Source of the DNA: a virus
Taxonomy: Duplodnaviria > Heunggongvirae > Uroviricota > Caudoviricetes
Direction: 5' to 3' (one strand)
Virus record (IMG/VR): IMGVR_UViG_2684622670_000019
Span: 1 to 24,648 of that record
Length of the DNA stretch: 24,648 bases
Shown here: piece by piece, positions 3,858-11,174 of the stretch
Layout: every line of letters starts with the position of its first letter
Numbering within the stretch: position 1 is the stretch's first letter
Notes under the pieces: model-generated
What the model saw: the letters and a program-made list of their open reading frames with translations, nothing else
The model's database searches: none
What the model was told of the DNA's origin: nothing
Made by a program: the position numbers and the translations under genes

Positions 3858-5921
3858 CTAAGAAAAAATCCAATTACCATACATTCCAGTTATTTCACTA
3901 TACATGCCTTCTTTATTTTTTAATTTAATCCAAGCGCCGAATTCAGTGGTGGCTACTTGCGTTACTTCTGAAGAGTTACTTACAAACCTTATATTTGCTA
4001 CACCTATTGCTCTACTTGGTGATGAGATTGTCATAGCTCTTATTATTTTTAACTCTCTGAAATCACCAGTGCTACTTGCGATTATATCAATATCATTAGT
4101 GCTATGGTTAAATATAATGGTGTTATTTAACAGCTTTGTATTTTGAAAAGATGTTATTGTGGCAATCCCTCCAATAAATCCTCTTATCTGGGCCGGGCCA
4201 GTATCTCCACTATCATAGGCTAATGATGTGGTTATATTATCTTCCTCCTTTCCTATATGTATATCAATAAAGTACTCTTTTAAACTAATACCAGCCAAAA
4301 CTAAAAATGTTGATATAGTCGATGTACATTTTTTAATAACCAGATTCTTAAAATTTCGAGATAACCCGATGCTTATTGGATCAATAGTTCTAGGTAATAA
4401 TCTGATTATTTTATCCCCACCTGCTATAGTAGTTTCATCAACAATTTCACCTATTTCCACAAAAAGGCGGTCATCCCCCAGCATTTCAAAAACACAAAAG
4501 TCTAAAGGAGACGTCTTAAATACCACTCTATCAATTAAGATTTTCCCTATACCATTTCCCATAACTCTAGTAGCTGTCACCCCTCTGTTAGTCACATTCG
4601 TTAGTGTTGTATTCCCCGAGATGATTACATCAGCTACAAGACTGTCAGGGAAAATATTAAGTTCCACACCAGTATACGCACCATTGATGTATGGGTTTGA
4701 GATTTCACAATTAATCAACCGAGGGACAGTGTGTCCAGGCACACTTTCGTCTGCCTCTGGTTCAATATCTATGCCAGATTTCGGCATAGCACCTGTAACA
4801 CCTCCGTAGTCACCAATATTATAAATCTCAGGATTAACTATTATTATATTTTCACCTGACGTTAGGCTTATACCGTTACGCCTGCATTGTTTGACGATCG
4901 GTTTTTCTATATAGATATTTTCTGGAACCGTGCCATCGGTAGTCCCCCACTTCATGCCTATATATATTCCGTCGCCAAACATGTTGGTATACAGTCCACC
5001 AATAATACGAATGTTAGAGGATTGAAGTATTGTAAGCCCCCATCCATGTTCTCCTTCGGATGTGTTTGTTAACCGATCACCTTCCAGTACAGGATTATAA
5101 ATATTTACATTTTTAACACCGTTTGCTATGTAAATGATATGGCTTTGTGGCCTGTTTTGATTTGCTAGTTTTAATGCCCCATCCTTCTCAAATCTTATAG
5201 TGCTATTATCTACGCATCTTAACACAGATTTAAAAGCATCATTTCCAGGGGAAAAAGGGTCTTCATTCACAGCCATCAAGCCTTCAAATGATTTATCTAT
5301 AATGAATTCTGCACCAATAGATGCTGCGGATTCATACGCTTTTTGTAGTGTTTGTGCGTCATTGCAAAAATCAGAAGCATAAATAGAGTTGGTTTTCTTT
5401 AATTCAAATATCCTACCATTTCTGCTCCTGATAATTAATATTCCATCTGGGGTGAGCGTGGGGGTGGATGATTCATAAACATATCGACCATGAATCATTA
5501 CATGATTAAATATATCTGGGACATCCTCTTGCTCTATATTAATAGCAACATATATAAGTTTATTACTTAACTCCCCCCTTAACTGATCAGGATCATACTT
5601 CAGCACATTAGGAAAATAGAACTGCTGCGCACCATACGCATCATATACAGCCATAGAATGGCCTTGCACAGTTACGAATTTAGCAATCTGTCCGTTATAT
5701 ACCGGATATCCAGCAGCGTTAATGATTATTGGTTGCGAAACAGGAACGTGAGAACCGTCTTCATTCTCCACATAAACCTGAATCTGGTTTTCAGGATTTA
5801 CTGGATCAGTGTCAATTTTACCGATATAAATTTTGCCATTGGCAACCGCTTTAAAAGAACGCGCCATAGTGAATAGTTGCGAAGGCATACTCACTACAAC
5901 ATTGGCTGTAATATCTGTCAT
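3858..5921 (-). CDS. Tailspike protein: P22-type N-terminal head-binding domain fused to a beta-helix receptor-binding (depolymerase) domain
   Basis: 687 aa; N-terminal ~110 aa ([11 protein letters not shown]...[32 protein letters not shown]...VLKYDPDQ) closely matches the P22/Sf6/HK620 tailspike head-binding domain from memory; the remainder is a repetitive beta-helix-like sequence. SD GGAG upstream of ATG 5921. Confidence 0.85.
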
Positions 5922-6053: not shown

Positions 6054-6311
6054 ATGATGTACAGCAAATACGATGAGGCGCAGTTCCACTTGAGGCTTAC
6101 GCACGAGTTGCACGCTAAGATTAAGCAGCGTGCAAAAATGAATAACAGGTCTATCAATTCCGAAATTGTGGCTACGATGGAAGAATCTCTCTCCAAACCA
6201 TCACCTGTAAGCGGGTATCGTGATGAAGAAGAGAGACTGGCCTCATTAATCTCGGAACGAGTAAAAGAAGTTGCGGCTGAAATTCTAAGGAAAGAAAAAA
6301 CCCGCGATTAA
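6054..6311 (+). CDS. Mnt-like ribbon-helix-helix repressor
   Basis: 85 aa from ATG 6054 (MMYSKYDEAQFHLRLTHELHAKIKQRAKMNNRSINSEIVATMEESLSKPSPVSGYRDEEERLA...) aligns with P22 Mnt (..FNFRMPMEVREKLKFRAEANGRSMNSELLQIVQDALSKPSPVTGYRNDAERLA..). The longer ORF-track start at 5877 is rejected. Confidence 0.75.
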   Translation: MMYSKYDEAQFHLRLTHELHAKIKQRAKMNNRSINSEIVATMEESLSKPSPVSGYRDEEERLASLISERVKEVAAEILRKEKTRD

Positions 6312-6337: not shown

Positions 6338-7063
6338 TTACGCCACATTTGAGCCATGTAGCAGGTGTTGTAGTGCTTTAACGCCTTCAGAATTGTAGCG
6401 GAACGCCTCTACCTGTTTGCTGGAATGCGCCGATTTATCCAGGAAGAACTTCCCGTACTGCTCAGTTTTGAGGTTGTTTGCGTTAGCAATGCGACCAATC
6501 TTGTTGGCCGTTACTCCAAGCTGCTCTGCAACCTCCCCTGCTGAGTAGTAATGCTCTTCTATTGCCGGAAGAGGTATTGCATTAAAACCAACAAGCGGGT
6601 TGATTATACTTGCTGCCGCTGTCTGCTTTGCCTCCGGCGCAAGATTTGGCATCAGATCGAACAGATTGGTAACAGCTTCAACCGTCATTTTCAGTGTTCG
6701 CGCTTGACGATACTCAATAAGTCCACTCGCTGATTTACCGCTTTTAATGTGTGCTTCCTGCATACTTTCAAGTTTGTCTACAAGTGTTCGGCGAACTGCT
6801 TTAGATTCGCGAGCAGCAACACGAAGCGCCTGCTTGATAGTCATGGAGATAACATCAATGTCAGCCCCGTTTTTCCGACCTACACTTTTTGTGTAGGTCT
6901 CGCCCTCCAATTCATCCTCAATTTTCTCGATGAATTTGTTGTTACGTACTGATGGCTCTCCACATAACTTGCGAGCTTCATTAACCATCATCAGAAGGCT
7001 TTGGCTGTCAATGGTTTTATCCGTGACAACGGATCCGATGTTTGCTACATTCTTCAAAGTCAT
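6338..7063 (-). CDS. Antirepressor-like protein with C-terminal KilAC/ANT-type domain
   Basis: 242 aa from ATG 7063 with SD AAGGA 7 nt upstream; C-terminal region (YSAGEVAEQLGVTANKIGRIANANNL...) resembles the phage antirepressor KilAC domain; sits in the ant position of a P22 immI-like operon. Confidence 0.6.
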   Translation of the reverse strand: MTLKNVANIGSVVTDKTIDSQSLLMMVNEARKLCGEPSVRNNKFIEKIEDELEGETYTKSVGRKNGADIDVISMTIKQALRVAARESKAVRRTLVDKLESMQEAHIKSGKSASGLIEYRQARTLKMTVEAVTNLFDLMPNLAPEAKQTAAASIINPLVGFNAIPLPAIEEHYYSAGEVAEQLGVTANKIGRIANANNLKTEQYGKFFLDKSAHSSKQVEAFRYNSEGVKALQHLLHGSNVA

Positions 7064-7100
7064 TAGGCATTCCTTATGTGGTAGTAAGGGTGTGACATAG

Positions 7101-7132
7101 GCCGCCAGCAGCACACTGGCGGTTTTCTTTTT
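7101..7132 (+). terminator. Intrinsic terminator in antisense orientation between the two antirepressor genes
   Basis: Stem ccgccag (7102-7108) / ctggcgg (7116-7122), 7-nt loop, then TTTTCTTTTT (7123-7132) on the plus strand although both flanking genes are on the minus strand. Confidence 0.55.
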
Positions 7133-7151
7133 GCGCCGTCCGGCGCACCAA

Positions 7152-7778
7152 TCAATGAATCCATTCCTCGCCGCGCAGTTTTGTCAGCATTGGCTGAGCG
7201 TTCTTTACGACAAAATTGTTGGTATCAAGATTCTTCATTTCACGAAGAAGTGATTTCTTGGTTTCTTCTGACATATAGCGAGTCTCATATGCAATATCGT
7301 AAATTCTTCCTGAAAGCTCAGAACCAATTTGCTTCATTCCTGGGTAGATGTGTTTGCACATTTGTTGACTCTTCTCCATCCACAATTGTAAGTAGCAGAG
7401 ATTAACCAGTTCTTCGTCAGTAAACTGTTTTGCAATCGGTGAGCATTCTGCCTGCCGATCCAAAATATCCAGCACCCAGCGGCGGAACTCTTTTGCTACA
7501 GGAGTGCGAGCAAACATCGCGATTAGGTGGGCACCGCGTAGTGAGAAAACTCGCACTTTTTTGCGATAATTTCCTGAGGTACTCACTTCGAGTACCTGAG
7601 TCATTCCGGCGCTAAACTCATCGCCATACTTGTTATAAATCATTGTTACTGCACGACTATTTGCGTATTTAAGTGCAGATGCAATATTAGATGATGTAAA
7701 CCAAACACCATGCATATCACGGGTGGGCACCAACTCAACTCCGTGGAAGTTGTAATCTGATTTTGCTACAATATTCAT
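7152..7778 (-). CDS. Antirepressor-like protein with N-terminal Bro-N/AntA-type domain
   Basis: About 208 aa from ATG 7778 with SD AAGGAA upstream; N-terminal half (NFHGVELVPTRDMHGVWFTSSNIASALKY...LIAMFARTPVAKEFRRWVLDIL) fits the Bro-N/AntA fold pattern; immediately downstream of the Arc-like gene. The TTG start at 7883 from the ORF track is rejected. Confidence 0.6.
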   Translation of the reverse strand: MNIVAKSDYNFHGVELVPTRDMHGVWFTSSNIASALKYANSRAVTMIYNKYGDEFSAGMTQVLEVSTSGNYRKKVRVFSLRGAHLIAMFARTPVAKEFRRWVLDILDRQAECSPIAKQFTDEELVNLCYLQLWMEKSQQMCKHIYPGMKQIGSELSGRIYDIAYETRYMSEETKKSLLREMKNLDTNNFVVKNAQPMLTKLRGEEWIH

Positions 7779-7851
7779 GTTAGTTTCCTTGCATACGGTT
7801 ACTGACATAGAGGCCCGGTTTGTGTTCGCGCACTGCCGGGCTTCGCTATTT

Positions 7852-8025
7852 TTATTGGATGACAACATCGCCCTTTGCCTCAAGTTTCATCAATAACTCC
7901 ATTCGATAAGCTATCTCTGCCTGAATTGACCTATGGCATCTTTTTGCTGATTCGCGGATATGTGAATCAACCTTTTCTGTAAAACGAACCTGACGCGGCT
8001 TGATGGAAGATATCTTTTCAGTCAT
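7852..8025 (-). CDS. Arc-like ribbon-helix-helix repressor (57 aa, below the ORF-track cutoff)
   Basis: MTEKISSIKPRQVRFTEKVDSHIRESAKRCHRSIQAEIAYRMELLMKLEAKGDVVIQ aligns with P22 Arc (PQFNLRWPREVLDLVRKVAEENGRSVNSEIYQRVMESFKKEGRIGA); SD AGGAG 7 nt upstream of ATG 8025; first gene of the minus-strand operon. Confidence 0.7.
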   Translation of the reverse strand: MTEKISSIKPRQVRFTEKVDSHIRESAKRCHRSIQAEIAYRMELLMKLEAKGDVVIQ

Positions 8026-8074
8026 TATGCACTCCTGTTTTTGAAAAACTCATAATCTCACTTTTTGTAGTTTG

Positions 8075-8103
8075 ATTATTCACTCACACTCAGTATGAGT
8101 CAA
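8075..8103 (-). promoter_or_regulatory. Sigma70-type promoter for the arc-ant operon (Pant analogue) with embedded candidate operator
   Basis: On the minus strand TTGACT (8103-8098), 17-nt spacer, AATAAT (8080-8075); the spacer contains the inverted repeat ACTCA-gta-TGAGT (8088-8100) and a further ACTCA copy at 8082-8086. Confidence 0.5.
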
Positions 8104-8124
8104 TGAATTTTTTATGGTGAACTA

Positions 8125-8766
8125 ATGAATTTTGACGATCAATTCCCATCAAGAGTATCTCTGGCAAGACAGTCCAGGGGTATGACGCAGGCGCAGTTGT
8201 CAAAATTAGCTGGTGTTGTTCAACGTCAAATAGCTGCATACGAGGGTGGTGAGGCTAAACCACGGCTTCGTGTATTGCAGGCATTAGCCAACGCATTAGG
8301 TACTACGGCTGAGTGGTTAGCTCTGGGTGAAGGTCAGGGTCCGGGAACAAAAAACGTCATGCCTGACGTTCTGGTAAAGCAAATACCAATCCTCAAACTA
8401 GATGAAGTTATGCATTACCTAAACACAGGTGAACATTCATCGTCTAGATTTCATCCGGCAATATACAATGTTGGTGACTCTGCATTTGCATTGACTATTG
8501 AAGGTGAAGCTATGACTACAAGTTCAGGCATTAGCTTTCCCAGAGGATCAGTTGTCACGTTCAGCCCTCTAGTAAAAGCTAAAAGCAAAGATTATGTAAT
8601 AGCATCATTGGATAAAGAGCAAATATTGAGCTTCAAACAGGTTTACATTGGTGAAATAGAGACAAACCTAGTATCCCTAAACCCAATGTATCCTAATATT
8701 CTTGTTAGAAATGAAGATGTTAGTATTTTGGCAACCGCAGTTTACCTTGAAATCCCGTTGCTTTGA
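8125..8766 (+). CDS. Lambda-CI-fold repressor (N-terminal XRE HTH, C-terminal S24 LexA-like domain) with catalytic Ser replaced by Ala; predicted non-cleavable
   Basis: 213 aa; HTH (MTQAQLSKLAGVVQRQIAAYEGGEAKP); C-terminal domain aligns with the lambda CI C-terminal domain (VGDSAFALTIEGEAM versus ASDSAFWLEVEGNSM; SFKQV versus TFKKL; LNPMYP versus LNPQYP). Divergent from the arc-like operon, in the P22 mnt position. Confidence 0.75.
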   Translation: MNFDDQFPSRVSLARQSRGMTQAQLSKLAGVVQRQIAAYEGGEAKPRLRVLQALANALGTTAEWLALGEGQGPGTKNVMPDVLVKQIPILKLDEVMHYLNTGEHSSSRFHPAIYNVGDSAFALTIEGEAMTTSSGISFPRGSVVTFSPLVKAKSKDYVIASLDKEQILSFKQVYIGEIETNLVSLNPMYPNILVRNEDVSILATAVYLEIPLL

Positions 8767-8826: not shown

Positions 8827-9054
8827 GTGAAGCGATGGTTCCTCATAATTACTGTTTTCGCGATCATTTACACTATTTTCCCTGCATTAAAAGCACCAAT
8901 GCAAATAATTTCACTAGCAATAATTGCGATTGGTGCTTTCATTGCAGTAGCCGTACTTGTGTTTAAGGTTTTAAAGTTTTTAGTTTGGCTATCAAAAGAT
9001 GATGGATGCAAAGTTCATCAAGAAAAAGAAGGCAAAATAACCAAAGTTGACTAA
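8827..9054 (+). CDS. Small two-TM membrane protein; candidate superinfection-exclusion or abortive-infection effector
   Basis: 75 aa; strong SD TAAGGAGG 5 nt upstream of GTG 8827; two hydrophobic helices (FLIITVFAIIYTIF, IISLAIIAIGAFIAVAVLVF) and a charged C-terminus; AT-rich; directly downstream of and co-oriented with the CI-like repressor; no recognisable homologue. Confidence 0.55.
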   Translation: MKRWFLIITVFAIIYTIFPALKAPMQIISLAIIAIGAFIAVAVLVFKVLKFLVWLSKDDGCKVHQEKEGKITKVD

Positions 9055-11174
9055 CTGTCACTAGCGAGCCATGTAATAATCCCCGTGCGGGCAATGGTTT
9101 TTGCTTCATCTGTTGATAAGGTTTTCTCCCATCTCTTAAATGCCCCAGATTGCATCAGTTTCCTTTCTATTACGCGTCTCACTTCTGCTCTGTCTACTGG
9201 TGCGTTTTGCAGGCGAAATAGCATTGATTTAAACTCAGGAGAAGACAGTAGAGCATCAGCAGCCTTTATCCTGCTTGTTTTCCCTGACATCAATGCGGAC
9301 GTTATCACCCCTGTTGCACCTACACCAGGAAGACCAGATAAGCTTGTAATACCTTCCGCCGCAGCAGCTTTTGAGGCTATTCCATAAATTTTTGCGAGAC
9401 TACCCTTTTCTTTCAGAAAGTTATTAACTTGCTGATCCACAAGGCTACTAGCATACTGCTTACCAGTATTGAGTCTATTCATAGACTTAGCTGCTTGATA
9501 AATCGTATCAAGGCGCTTTGATGCATCTGTGCCAATAGCATCACGGAGAGCCTTCATATTGGCCCCATTGCGTGACATTCCGTTATACCATTTTACAAAT
9601 CCATCAACTCCTAATTGCTGGCCAGGTGATTTGGCATAGCTGGTAAATGCTTTATTCATTGAGGTGAGCGCAACTTCCTGCCGCATATCCTTTGGAATTG
9701 ACTTCATTAATTGCCTAAAGTCACCACCGTTTCCTTTTGCCATATTAACAACAGCACTTTCAACTTTTGGAATTGCTGATTGCTGAAGTTTTCTACCCAA
9801 GACGGTTACAGCATCATCTTCAATGGATTTTCGTTTTTTTACCAACTCCTTACCAAGCGTCCATAACTCCCCTGCGCCATATTTTTCTGCGACAGCCTGT
9901 TGGTCATCTGTTATAGCTGCATATAACTTTTTAAGAACACCTGTTTCTTCATCCTTGAATGGACCAGAGCCTTTGCCAATAGCTTGCCCCACCTGCTTTC
10001 TAGCGAGATCTAAACGCCCATACGTTGGCAAGGTGTTTGGATCAAGTCGGTTCAATGTCCGCTTCATTATTGGAGATAATTCATCAATTCCACCTATGTC
10101 ATCAGCAAAATCCTCTAAAAAATTCAATGTATTAGTTGCCTCAATACGGTCTCTTACTGGAACCTTTTCGGCAATTTTGTTGTAGATGTTATCTGACTGA
10201 TTTTGTAATGATGAAATGGTTTTATCAAAATTATCTGCAAGCCTGTCAGAAACCAGTTGCTTATCAAGGCTTCCCCCAAATGAAGTTATCATTTCATCAG
10301 CTTTTCTTCCTAATTCAGTAATAAAACGCTTATGCGCCTCACTAATCTCTGTTCCAGGGAGACTTGCCACTGCATTATCAAGAGCCCTGACAGCGGGATT
10401 ATTAGAGATCATGCCTGGAGTGGCATAATTTTCCAGTTCTAGCTCACGAATAGCATTTATCGCGTTAAAATCAGGATTAACTTCATCGGCGAAATCTTGA
10501 ATAGCTCGTTGCCCGCCGATAAATTTATTGTCCATTGCGCCAGCAGCTTTCTTTAACGTTGCTTTAGATGATTTACTACCCATCCCTACGGATGAGCGAT
10601 AAATATCTCCGGCACTATTTTTAATTTTTCCTGCAATCTTCCCAAGCGCTGGGCCAACAATCTCTGCTACAGGGCCAGCCACAGCGCCAATAGCAGCGCC
10701 GGAAGCAACATCGCTATTTGTTCCATTGGCTACAATAGCCCCTTCTCCAGCACCAAGCCCTGCGGCGGCAGCCAGCCTTGCCGCCCCTTTCGGAACCTGA
10801 GAAATAATCCCACCACCACTAACAAATGGTGCTGCTTGTCCAACGAACTCACCAACATCTTGTGCGGTTGATGGTTTTGCCGCTAACTTCTGCTGTAGAG
10901 ACTGAATTGCGGCTTGCTCTTCTGGTGTCATATCCTGAAACAGGCCAACACCTTTACCAACATCCATCAATCCACTGAGAACGCCATACATAAAACGGTC
11001 GAAACCGTTGGCTTTATTAACAACATTTTCCTGTCTGGAATTTTCCTCTGGTGAAACCAAAGGTGATTGCTGCTGTTCTGGTTGGGCATCAAGCACAAAA
11101 CCATCAGGAAGCTGTGAGTTATCAGGCTGATTATCGAGAACAAAGCCTTCGGGTAAACCTACATCGGTTGCCAT
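9051..11174 (-). CDS. Ejection (E) protein, P22 gp16-like
   Basis: 707 aa, Gly/Ala-rich; last gene of the gp7-gp20-gp16 ejection-protein block by conserved P22-like gene order. Confidence 0.7.

Follow-up and report, generated by a model that had tools for sequence, protein, structure and literature searches.

What is the role of the 99-bp spacer that separates two divergent regulatory genes in the antirepressor region of a P22-like prophage, and which proteins act on it? The window analysed here (the whole stretch of 24,648 nucleotides) is a P22-like E. coli prophage, and the region in question is the "ant moron" of HS-1 and phage JEP4. Escherichia phage JEP4 (Lederbergvirus) shares 98.8% identity with the window over the 1.2 kb that surround the spacer, and prophages with the module at 98.8-99.3% identity were found in 28 of 5,426 complete E. 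coli genomes, strain HS among them. A single paper that mentions such an ant moron was found; it described the antirepressor genes of HS-1, noted an "apparent lack of arc" and suggested a control unlike that of P22 (Villafane et al., 2008; PMC2629481). Our literature search found no paper that characterises the cassette. The original prediction, made from the sequence of the window, had proposed a divergent control region with a strong promoter and with ACTCA/TGAGT repeats as operators for an Arc-like, an Mnt-like and/or a CI-like protein, as at P22 Pant/Pmnt. As argued below, we consider it likely that the spacer controls a self-contained antirepressor cassette that is evolutionarily related to P22 immI.

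The antirepressor locus and its setting

The ant moron slot, which in P22 separates genes 16 and 9, lies between a gene 16-type ejection-protein gene and the tailspike gene, and the same slot is occupied in the window, where the tailspike gene (3858-5921) encodes a P22 head-binding domain. The genes and elements of the locus are as follows.

6057-6311: gene for an Mnt-like protein (Arc-family)
6338-7063, minus strand: antirepressor 2 (phrog_1726; start set at ATG 7063)
7152-7778, minus strand: antirepressor 1 (Bro-N and P22_AR_C domains)
7779-7850, plus strand: predicted sar homologue, antisense to the ribosome-binding site of the first antirepressor gene
7852-8025, minus strand: 57-aa ribbon-helix-helix (RHH) protein, first gene of the operon and Arc analogue (phrog_10182, "unknown function")
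8026-8124: the 99-bp spacer; on its left the 57-aa gene starts on the minus strand (CAT at 8023-8025), and on its right the CI-like gene starts at ATG 8125
8125-8766, plus strand: CI-like repressor of 213 aa (434-type HTH and lambda-type S24 domains)
9051-11174: ejection-protein gene (gene 16-type)

The 57-aa gene appears to be the regulator that was missed by Villafane et al. (2008). JEP4 carries a separate, classical c2-cro-c1 immunity region, and the CI-like gene of the spacer locus is thus a second repressor. Although the protein has the architecture of CI and is annotated in JEP4 as "repressor protein C2", it is hardly credible that it is the main repressor of the prophage and that the spacer is the primary lysis-lysogeny switch, equivalent to immC. 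Besides the presence of the c2-cro-c1 region, the operon under control consists of antirepressor genes and not of replication or lysis genes, and in many phage types the cassette is located within tail or late gene clusters. We rejected this candidate role because the genome context contradicts it.

Promoter of the antirepressor operon

The expression signals read from the spacer are listed below.

8098-8103, minus strand: -35 hexamer TTGACT (reverse complement), of which GTCAA is nearly invariant in 25 non-redundant aligned loci
8075-8080, minus strand: -10 hexamer AATAAT (reverse complement), 17 nt from the -35
8033-8037, minus strand: Shine-Dalgarno sequence AGGAG of the 57-aa RHH gene, within the invariant block 8027-8040
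8116-8120, plus strand: weak Shine-Dalgarno sequence GGTGA of the CI-like gene (family consensus A.GG)

The promoter TTGACT-17-AATAAT matches the consensus at 10 of 12 positions, and with a simple position-weight score it comes out first among the 246,150 hexamer pairs scored on the two strands of the window (24.6 kb). In all of the approximately 45 distinct related loci, the best minus-strand sigma-70-like site is found at this same position, and the end of the -10 lies 48-51 nt from the ATG of the CI-like gene (53-60 nt in the type-4 locus L082 and in a distant branch). Loci of the main family have TTGAC[T/A/C] as their -35, and some distant ones a weaker hexamer; a -10-like hexamer, variable in sequence and always good, follows at 16-18 nt in every locus. 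GTCAA is the most conserved element in the MAFFT alignment of the spacers. The promoter, here called P_ant after its P22 analogue, is beyond chance, and its predicted start site is at about 8068. The near-consensus promoter had been placed at exactly the right coordinates, and comparison with the related loci has only strengthened this part of the original prediction.

In record X01916, our reference for P22 immI, 22 bp separate the Pant -35 from the mnt ATG, as compared with 21 bp between the -35 and the ATG of the CI-like gene in the window, and the intergenic spacers measure 90 and 99 bp, respectively. In P22, Oarc fills the Pant spacer, while Omnt follows the -10 at +1 to +18, and the Pmnt hexamers overlap Pant back-to-back, with the Pmnt -10 over the Pant -35. 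Searching for the P22 Oarc and Omnt sequences themselves gave no match within 3 mismatches anywhere in the window.

The sar-like element and kinship with immI

The element between the stop codon of the RHH gene and the start of the first antirepressor gene forms two predicted hairpins that end in a T run (fold z-score -5.2) and aligns with the sar region of P22. It is preceded by a possible promoter of its own.

7744-7749 and 7767-7772, plus strand: candidate sar promoter TGGAAG, 17 nt, TACAAT

Compensatory changes are found in 8 of the 12 pairs of the terminator stem, and when aligned, the terminator hairpin of locus L004 is identical to that of P22 sar at every base. Nearly all loci carry the element. 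Rfam holds no sar family, and the sole hit there was a sub-threshold match to symR. Judged by its alignment and predicted fold, 7779-7850 is a sar homologue. Because this homologue is situated just downstream, the analogy with immI amounts to shared ancestry and goes beyond mere resemblance. Geometry and sar homology support what had been predicted, a divergent control region in the layout of P22 Pant/Pmnt whose strong promoter reads into an RHH-antirepressor operon.

The regulators encoded on either side

The 57-aa protein displays the RHH pattern, i.e. an N-terminal beta-strand with alternating outward residues followed by two helices, the second of which bears an R-S/T cap. The profile built from 18 diverse RHH relatives matches the chains of pArc, AmrZ, CopG, Mnt and Arc (E = 2e-4 to 1e-2). 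Pfam Arc (PF03869) scores 16.0 bits with the window protein, below the cutoff of 20.4, and it matches 8 of the 18 relatives at E <= 0.1, with 2.6e-5 as the best E value. Residues P10, Q12 and R14 align with Q9, N11 and R13 of Arc, which contact bases. On these sequence features, the protein is assigned to the ribbon-helix-helix class; it is Arc-like in position and fold class and lies outside the curated Arc family, so that the designation "Arc-like" is justified at the level of the RHH superfamily but not at that of the Pfam family.

The Mnt-like protein had been named as a further operator binder. However, none of the gene tables that we inspected for eight cassette contexts of other phage types lists its gene, and the protein therefore cannot explain the conserved blocks of the spacer; the Mnt-like gene is not part of the cassette, and this role has to be given up. 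Two small convergent ORFs at the operon end, in L004 and L008, were considered as Mnt equivalents and set aside, since inspection of their translations by eye revealed no obvious RHH motif.

The 213-aa protein combines HTH_3 (9.3e-13) and Peptidase_S24 (1.3e-12) domains, as do the members of the LexA/CI family. Its N-terminal domain aligns with the DNA-binding domain of the 434 repressor (E = 4e-6) and its C-terminal domain with residues 129-226 of lambda CI (E = 1.6e-7). Throughout the family the recognition helix reads G-V/I-V/S-x-RQIAAYE, and apart from position x it does not vary. The equivalent of Ser149 is Ala (GEAM in place of GNSM or GDSM) while that of Lys192 is kept, and the protein thus lacks the Ser-Lys dyad of the self-cleaving LexA/CI repressors. 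The same Ala occurs in the three closest relatives that share the change (P0002, P0004 and P0005), whereas 16 of the 17 other relatives keep the serine (GDSM, GNSM or GESM). Because the catalytic serine is missing, the CI-like protein is probably an SOS-blind maintenance repressor that acts like Mnt.

Constrained blocks and the ACTCA/TGAGT repeats

To locate constrained positions, we compared the window with its three clade members L002, L004 and L007, whose spacers align with it without gaps and whose CI-like and RHH proteins are 71-92% and 86-91% identical, respectively. For the wider family, in which 1-3 nt indels blur the conservation of ungapped columns, a MAFFT alignment was used instead. 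Counts of invariant positions in the four clade cassettes are given below.

8027-8040: ribosome-binding site of the RHH gene, 14/14 invariant
8045-8062: left block AAAACTCATAATCTCACT, candidate operator, 18/18 invariant
8063-8074: intervening stretch, 0/12 invariant
8081-8094: promoter spacer, 1/14 invariant
8095-8105: right block ATGAGTCAATG, candidate operator overlapping the -35 and its flanks, 11/11 invariant

The left block holds a tandem CTCA-N4-CTCA and corresponds to about +7 to +24 of the predicted P_ant transcript; its family-wide consensus is AAaCtCA.AaaCTCAt. The family-wide consensus of the right block is aTGaGTCAATG followed by a T run, and this is the block with the highest information across the family. 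The two blocks, which appear to be held constant by selection, are candidate operators. Among these, the best conserved in the clade comparison is the 18-bp putative operator at 8045-8062, downstream of the predicted start. The original prediction had covered 6 bp of that block.

Two further features concern the repeats between the promoter hexamers.

8088-8100: palindrome ACTCA-GTA-TGAGT, 13 bp, in the promoter spacer and -35; candidate dimer site
8082-8086, plus strand: extra ACTCA, not conserved and lineage-specific

All motifs claimed for the spacer are present at the exact coordinates, i.e. ACTCA at 8082-8086 and 8088-8092, TGAGT at 8096-8100, ACTCAT at 8048-8053 and ATGAGT at 8095-8100. 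Their number carries no weight: the window has 42 copies of ACTCA where 45.6 are expected, approximately 33% of 99-bp shuffles hold some 5-mer in at least four copies, and we dropped the count as evidence. The repeats gain meaning because related loci were compared. In this comparison the proposal that they are operators held for ATGAGT and ACTCAT, which fall in the constrained blocks, but not for the ACTCA copies of the promoter spacer, which lie in one of the least conserved stretches; the stress laid on two ACTCA copies between the -35 and -10 was thus misplaced. CTCA at 8089-8092 is kept in three of the four loci of the clade. The perfect palindrome ACTCA-N3-TGAGT occurs once in the window; it is kept as (A/T)CTCAT-N-ATGAGT in L002, L004 and L006, its left arm is partly kept in L008, L013 and L061, and it is lost in L007, L009 and others. 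We found no convincing further copies of the right block or of the palindrome in the window, including upstream of the Mnt-like gene. The sole 8-mer common to the spacer and the region upstream of mnt is CAATGAAT.

These observations also bear on whether the ACTCA/TGAGT motifs arose by chance in an AT-rich promoter region in which just the -35, the -10 and the ribosome-binding sites function. Such an origin would account for the insignificant 5-mer count, for the lineage-specific copy at 8082, for a left-right similarity that is insignificant inside single loci except L070, and for half-site spacings that differ between cassette classes. We nevertheless regard it as very unlikely, since an 18-bp block with no role as promoter or ribosome-binding site is invariant next to neighbours with 0/12 and 1/14 invariant positions, and TG at 8096-8097 and ATG at 8103-8105, on the flanks of the -35, are conserved beyond what a -35 needs. 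Moreover, two DNA-binding proteins that are strictly linked to the spacer need sites somewhere.

Transcription of the CI-like gene

A possible promoter for the CI-like gene is found inside the 5' end of the RHH gene, where it would face P_ant.

8000-8005 and 8023-8028, plus strand: candidate CI-like promoter TTGATG, 17 nt, CATTAT

In almost all loci this candidate reaches the 99th percentile or exceeds it, and its median score is 8.1. In the same region, RHH codon 8 always ends in C (ATC, AGC or GGC) and Lys9 is always encoded by AAG (30 of 30 loci each), whereas other Lys codons nearby are both AAA and AAG and the next Pro codon uses all four third bases. The candidate overlaps a coding sequence and its start codon, and it is lacking in type-4 loci. 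The alternative is a weak promoter that overlaps P_ant back-to-back, with a candidate -35 at about 8068-8077 and a -10 at about 8091-8099. This is the arrangement of Pmnt in P22 and would yield a short, mnt-like leader; furthermore, a CAnnAT hexamer ends at the AT of ATGAGT in many loci, and one of the top three plus-strand hits falls there in nine loci. However, the best such pair in the window, TAGTTT-17-CAGTAT, scores 0.5, and the family median of 3.6 stays within the background range, in contrast to the higher median of the facing candidate and its nucleotide constraint at synonymous sites. We therefore hold the back-to-back promoter to be rather unlikely, and the CI-like gene is probably transcribed from the facing promoter inside the start of the RHH gene, with a predicted start at about 8035. 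If the facing promoter is real, the start sites of P_ant and of the CI-like gene are about 33 bp apart and the left block lies within the overlap.

Assignment of the operators

Which protein binds which block? As a tentative choice, we place dimers of the CI-like protein at the promoter core, i.e. on the right block and palindrome, and the RHH protein on the tandem CTCA-N4-CTCA of the left block. The comparison of the window with L044 and L093 points in this direction. The RHH proteins of these loci are approximately 90% identical, with identical beta-strands, and the left blocks have the core AAAAACTCATA in common, whereas the palindromes of the promoter spacers are unrelated (ACTCAgtaTGAGT and ATATGAATtATTCATAT) and the CI-like proteins are only 46% identical. 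The palindromes thus differ in step with the CI-like protein and the left core goes with the RHH protein, which favours the CI-like protein at the core and the RHH protein on the left. An array of RHH dimers, such as that of MetJ, would also fit tandem units of 8 bp.

Covariation was a second line of evidence. In 12 of the 12 loci whose CI-like recognition helix has Arg at position x, where the helix starts, the GAG of the right block is replaced with GTG, giving GTGTCAA and not GAGTCAA. CTCA is kept in the left blocks of almost all of these loci; L070 is the exception, an Arg-type locus whose -10 lies between two ACAC-N-GTGT palindromes. Taken as proof of binding of the right block by the CI-like protein, this covariation was weakened: the many independent switches suggested by the whole-protein tree shrink in a tree of the N-terminal domain, in which the Arg-type domains form one or two clusters. 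L061 and L069, whose RHH proteins differ at one residue, have quite different control regions. Because control region and CI-like N-terminal domain are passed on together as a block, the association of Arg with GTG may reflect one or two evolutionary events, that is, descent.

The opposite, P22-like assignment would place the RHH protein on the ACTCA/TGAGT palindrome between the -35 and -10 and the CI-like protein on the 18-bp left block. In P22, Arc binds in the Pant spacer and Mnt after the start site, the reverse of the order that we prefer, and positional homology between the cassette and immI, which share ancestry, accordingly favours the opposite assignment. The base-contacting N11 and R13 of Arc have their counterparts in Q12 and R14 of the RHH protein. 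The CI-like recognition helix is invariant, and yet the spacer palindromes differ completely between cassette classes; such a helix would match the family-wide invariant left core AAACTCAT better. The left block is also similar across RHH types with different beta-strand residues, and its class follows the class of the CI-like protein (CTCAAT with Pro; ACTCACAGACTCG with Arg or His). The variable half-site spacing between classes also speaks against our preferred placement, as does the lack of significant left-right similarity within single loci. On the other hand, cassettes with the same RHH beta-strand have a promoter spacer that is nearly without invariant positions, and L007 and L009 are without the palindrome. 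In addition, the right block remains constant across RHH types that differ in their beta-strand residues, and the Arg-linked change is in the right block and not in the left. Weighing these points, we consider the P22-like assignment possible but doubtful and give other arrangements a slightly smaller chance.

The circuit would be the same under either assignment, and regulation probably proceeds as follows. The leftward sigma-70 promoter (-35 at 8103-8098, -10 at 8080-8075) would transcribe the RHH gene, pass the sar gene and read the two antirepressor genes. In the lysogen, the CI-like repressor, in the place of mnt, would keep P_ant shut, and owing to the change from Ser to Ala it should not respond to RecA/SOS, unlike most of its relatives. 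After infection, the RHH protein made from P_ant would, as the Arc analogue, shut P_ant in turn and limit antirepressor synthesis. The candidate operators for these steps would be the right block over the -35, here extended to the palindrome, and, as the second, the left block just past the predicted start. If the promoters face each other, a protein bound to the left block would shut both, as Arc does, and one bound to the right block P_ant alone, as Mnt does; repression of P_ant would then free the promoter of the CI-like gene from interference as well. The proposal that the operator is bound by the RHH and/or the CI-like protein in the manner of P22 Pant/Pmnt retains its immI-type layout but loses the role of Mnt, and no sequence like Oarc or Omnt goes with it.

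Distribution and cargo of the cassette

Homologues of the CI-like protein (32-100% identity) were found in approximately 80 loci. Every distinct locus (about 45) has a gene for a 56-57-aa RHH protein divergently upstream of the CI-like gene, with a spacer of 97-100 bp (85-90 bp in the distant branch). A search seeded with the RHH protein gave the same pairing, and among the loci examined we found neither an RHH gene without its CI-like partner nor the reverse. The contexts comprise podovirus, siphovirus and myovirus genomes, in which the cassette is flanked by structural genes, e.g. those for the tape measure, minor tail proteins, the sheath initiator and baseplate J. The cargo that follows the RHH gene varies and includes Bro-N, P22_AR_N/C, Rha, ORF6N and KilA-N/ANT antirepressors.

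A bolder reading, which we regard as speculative, is that the control region, the CI-like gene, the RHH gene and sar together make up a plug-in induction module of podo-, sipho- and myoviruses with interchangeable cargo and with facing promoters about 33 bp apart. If so, relatives that keep the Ser-Lys dyad would, through the antirepressor, make their host phage and co-resident prophages SOS-inducible without host LexA, and the exchange of Ser for Ala would have switched this SOS input off in the lineage of the window. Specificity would then reside in the CI-like N-terminal domain, inherited as a block with the control region, and the RHH protein would be a generic, swappable shut-off.

Antirepressor modules set the waking of prophages and can induce neighbouring prophages in the same cell. 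The present cassette is common (the E. coli genomes mentioned above, many Enterobacterales phages and three morphotypes), and yet annotations call its 57-aa regulator "hypothetical". With the promoter, both constrained blocks and the putative sar homologue located, footprinting and reporter work can start from a concrete map. A repressor that lacks the serine, beside relatives that bear it, is a natural case for testing whether SOS sensing matters in such cassettes.

Comparison with known systems

The cassette can be set beside four known systems. If the promoter at 8000-8028 is real, the locus would resemble the face-to-face switches of P2 and 186 (Pe/Pc and pR/pL) in having two converging promoters with nearby starts. 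In those switches, repression of the strong promoter relieves interference on the promoter of the repressor. The proteins of the cassette are unrelated to P2 C and to 186 CI and Apl, and the overlap is much shorter than the 62 bp of 186.

As compared with the CI repressors of 434 and lambda, the CI-like protein governs an accessory antirepressor operon and not PL/PR, and its candidate operator is a palindrome of 13 bp instead of 14 or 17 bp.

The Gifsy antirepressors GfoA, GfhA and GftA and Tum of coliphage 186 are reportedly controlled by LexA. In these systems, as here, an antirepressor is kept silent by a repressor of the LexA/CI type. However, they use the LexA of the host, whereas the repressor is encoded by the cassette here; that of the window lacks the catalytic serine and should not sense SOS, and the cassette adds a layer of RHH protein and antisense RNA. 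Silencing of an antirepressor gene by a LexA/CI-type repressor, with the antirepressor inactivating the main prophage repressor once it is expressed, has been described (PMC7067206).

The closest likeness is to P22 immI. Both occupy the slot from the ejection-protein gene to the tailspike gene, and in both a divergent repressor gene faces an antirepressor operon that begins with an RHH gene and has a strong promoter. The differences lie in the parts. In place of Mnt, an RHH tetramer, the divergent repressor is a CI-like protein with HTH and S24 domains; the RHH protein encoded first in the operon is of a distinct family that does not reach the Pfam Arc threshold; the repressor gene is probably read from a promoter that faces P_ant and does not stand back-to-back with it; the operon has two antirepressor genes, with a sar-like unit ahead of each; and the cassette occurs in siphovirus and myovirus genomes as well. 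Our results thus extend the P22 immI model to a broader mosaic family and do not overturn the current understanding of it.

Sar-type units and the two antirepressor genes

Two units resembling sar, the antisense RNA gene between arc and ant in the immI region of P22, are found in the window, one associated with each antirepressor gene.

7744-7856, plus strand: antisense RNA homologous to P22 sar, opposite the RBS of the first antirepressor gene
7744-7772, plus strand: its candidate promoter, TGGAAG-17-TACAAT
7779-7844, plus strand: its two hairpins
7023-7135, plus strand: second sar-like unit, preceding the second antirepressor gene
7023-7051, plus strand: its promoter-like sequence, GTGACA-17-TACATT
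7099-7130, plus strand: its hairpin, AGGCCGCCAG...CTGGCGG, followed by a T run

The 7744-7856 unit could be aligned to P22 sar with covariation in the terminator stem, and its T run shares bases with the stop codon of the RHH gene; Rfam has no family for this homologue. The fold z-score of the second unit was only -2.2. Because the second unit lies before the second antirepressor gene and has the motif TGACATAGG in common with the first, the sequence suggests that each of the two antirepressor genes may have a separate antisense RNA.

Palindromes in the control regions

8037-8049: perfect 13-bp palindrome GTTTTTGAAAAAC, directly left of the conserved left block, the 18-bp candidate operator

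This palindrome is only partly preserved in relatives, and the related locus L019, otherwise identical to the window copy, carries G8043A within it. In another related locus, L070 (IMGVR_UViG_2924464632_000003), the spacer upstream of the CI-like gene contains the near-identical palindromes ACACGGTGTG and ACACAGTGTG, which are 30 bp apart and sit on either side of the -10 of the antirepressor promoter; the first residue of the CI-like helix is Arg in this locus. L070 shows the clearest arrangement of two candidate operators in the cassette family.

CI-like repressor

8102-8111 and 8124-8133: direct repeat of AATGAATTTT

The CI-like start codon lies inside the second copy of this repeat, and a mini-ORF, ATG AAT TTT TTA TGG TGA (8103-8120), arises from the first. 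Upstream ATGAGTCAA is wrongly annotated as an N-terminal extension (MSQ...) of the CI-like genes of several relatives. At residues about 127-130, the repressor (8125-8766, plus strand) reads GEAM, in contrast to GDSM in relatives; the window lineage and the homologues P0002, P0004, and P0005 have alanine at the position of the S24 domain's catalytic serine, and 16 of the 17 other family members retain the serine.

Flanking genes and comparison with P22

8827-9054, plus strand: predicted membrane protein of 75 aa, assigned to phrog_7294, a group of unknown function
6057-6311, plus strand: Mnt-like Arc-family gene, convergent to the antirepressor operon and adjoining the tailspike gene

The membrane protein gene belongs to a separate mosaic segment common to phages EC.P3, E212, and epsilon34 (gene 14 region), and occupies the position that sieA has in P22. 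The cassette as inspected in other phage types does not include the Mnt-like gene. The Mnt-like protein of the window resembles P22 Mnt in its C-terminal part but differs in the beta-strand residues, which are QFHLRL in the window and HFNFRM in P22.
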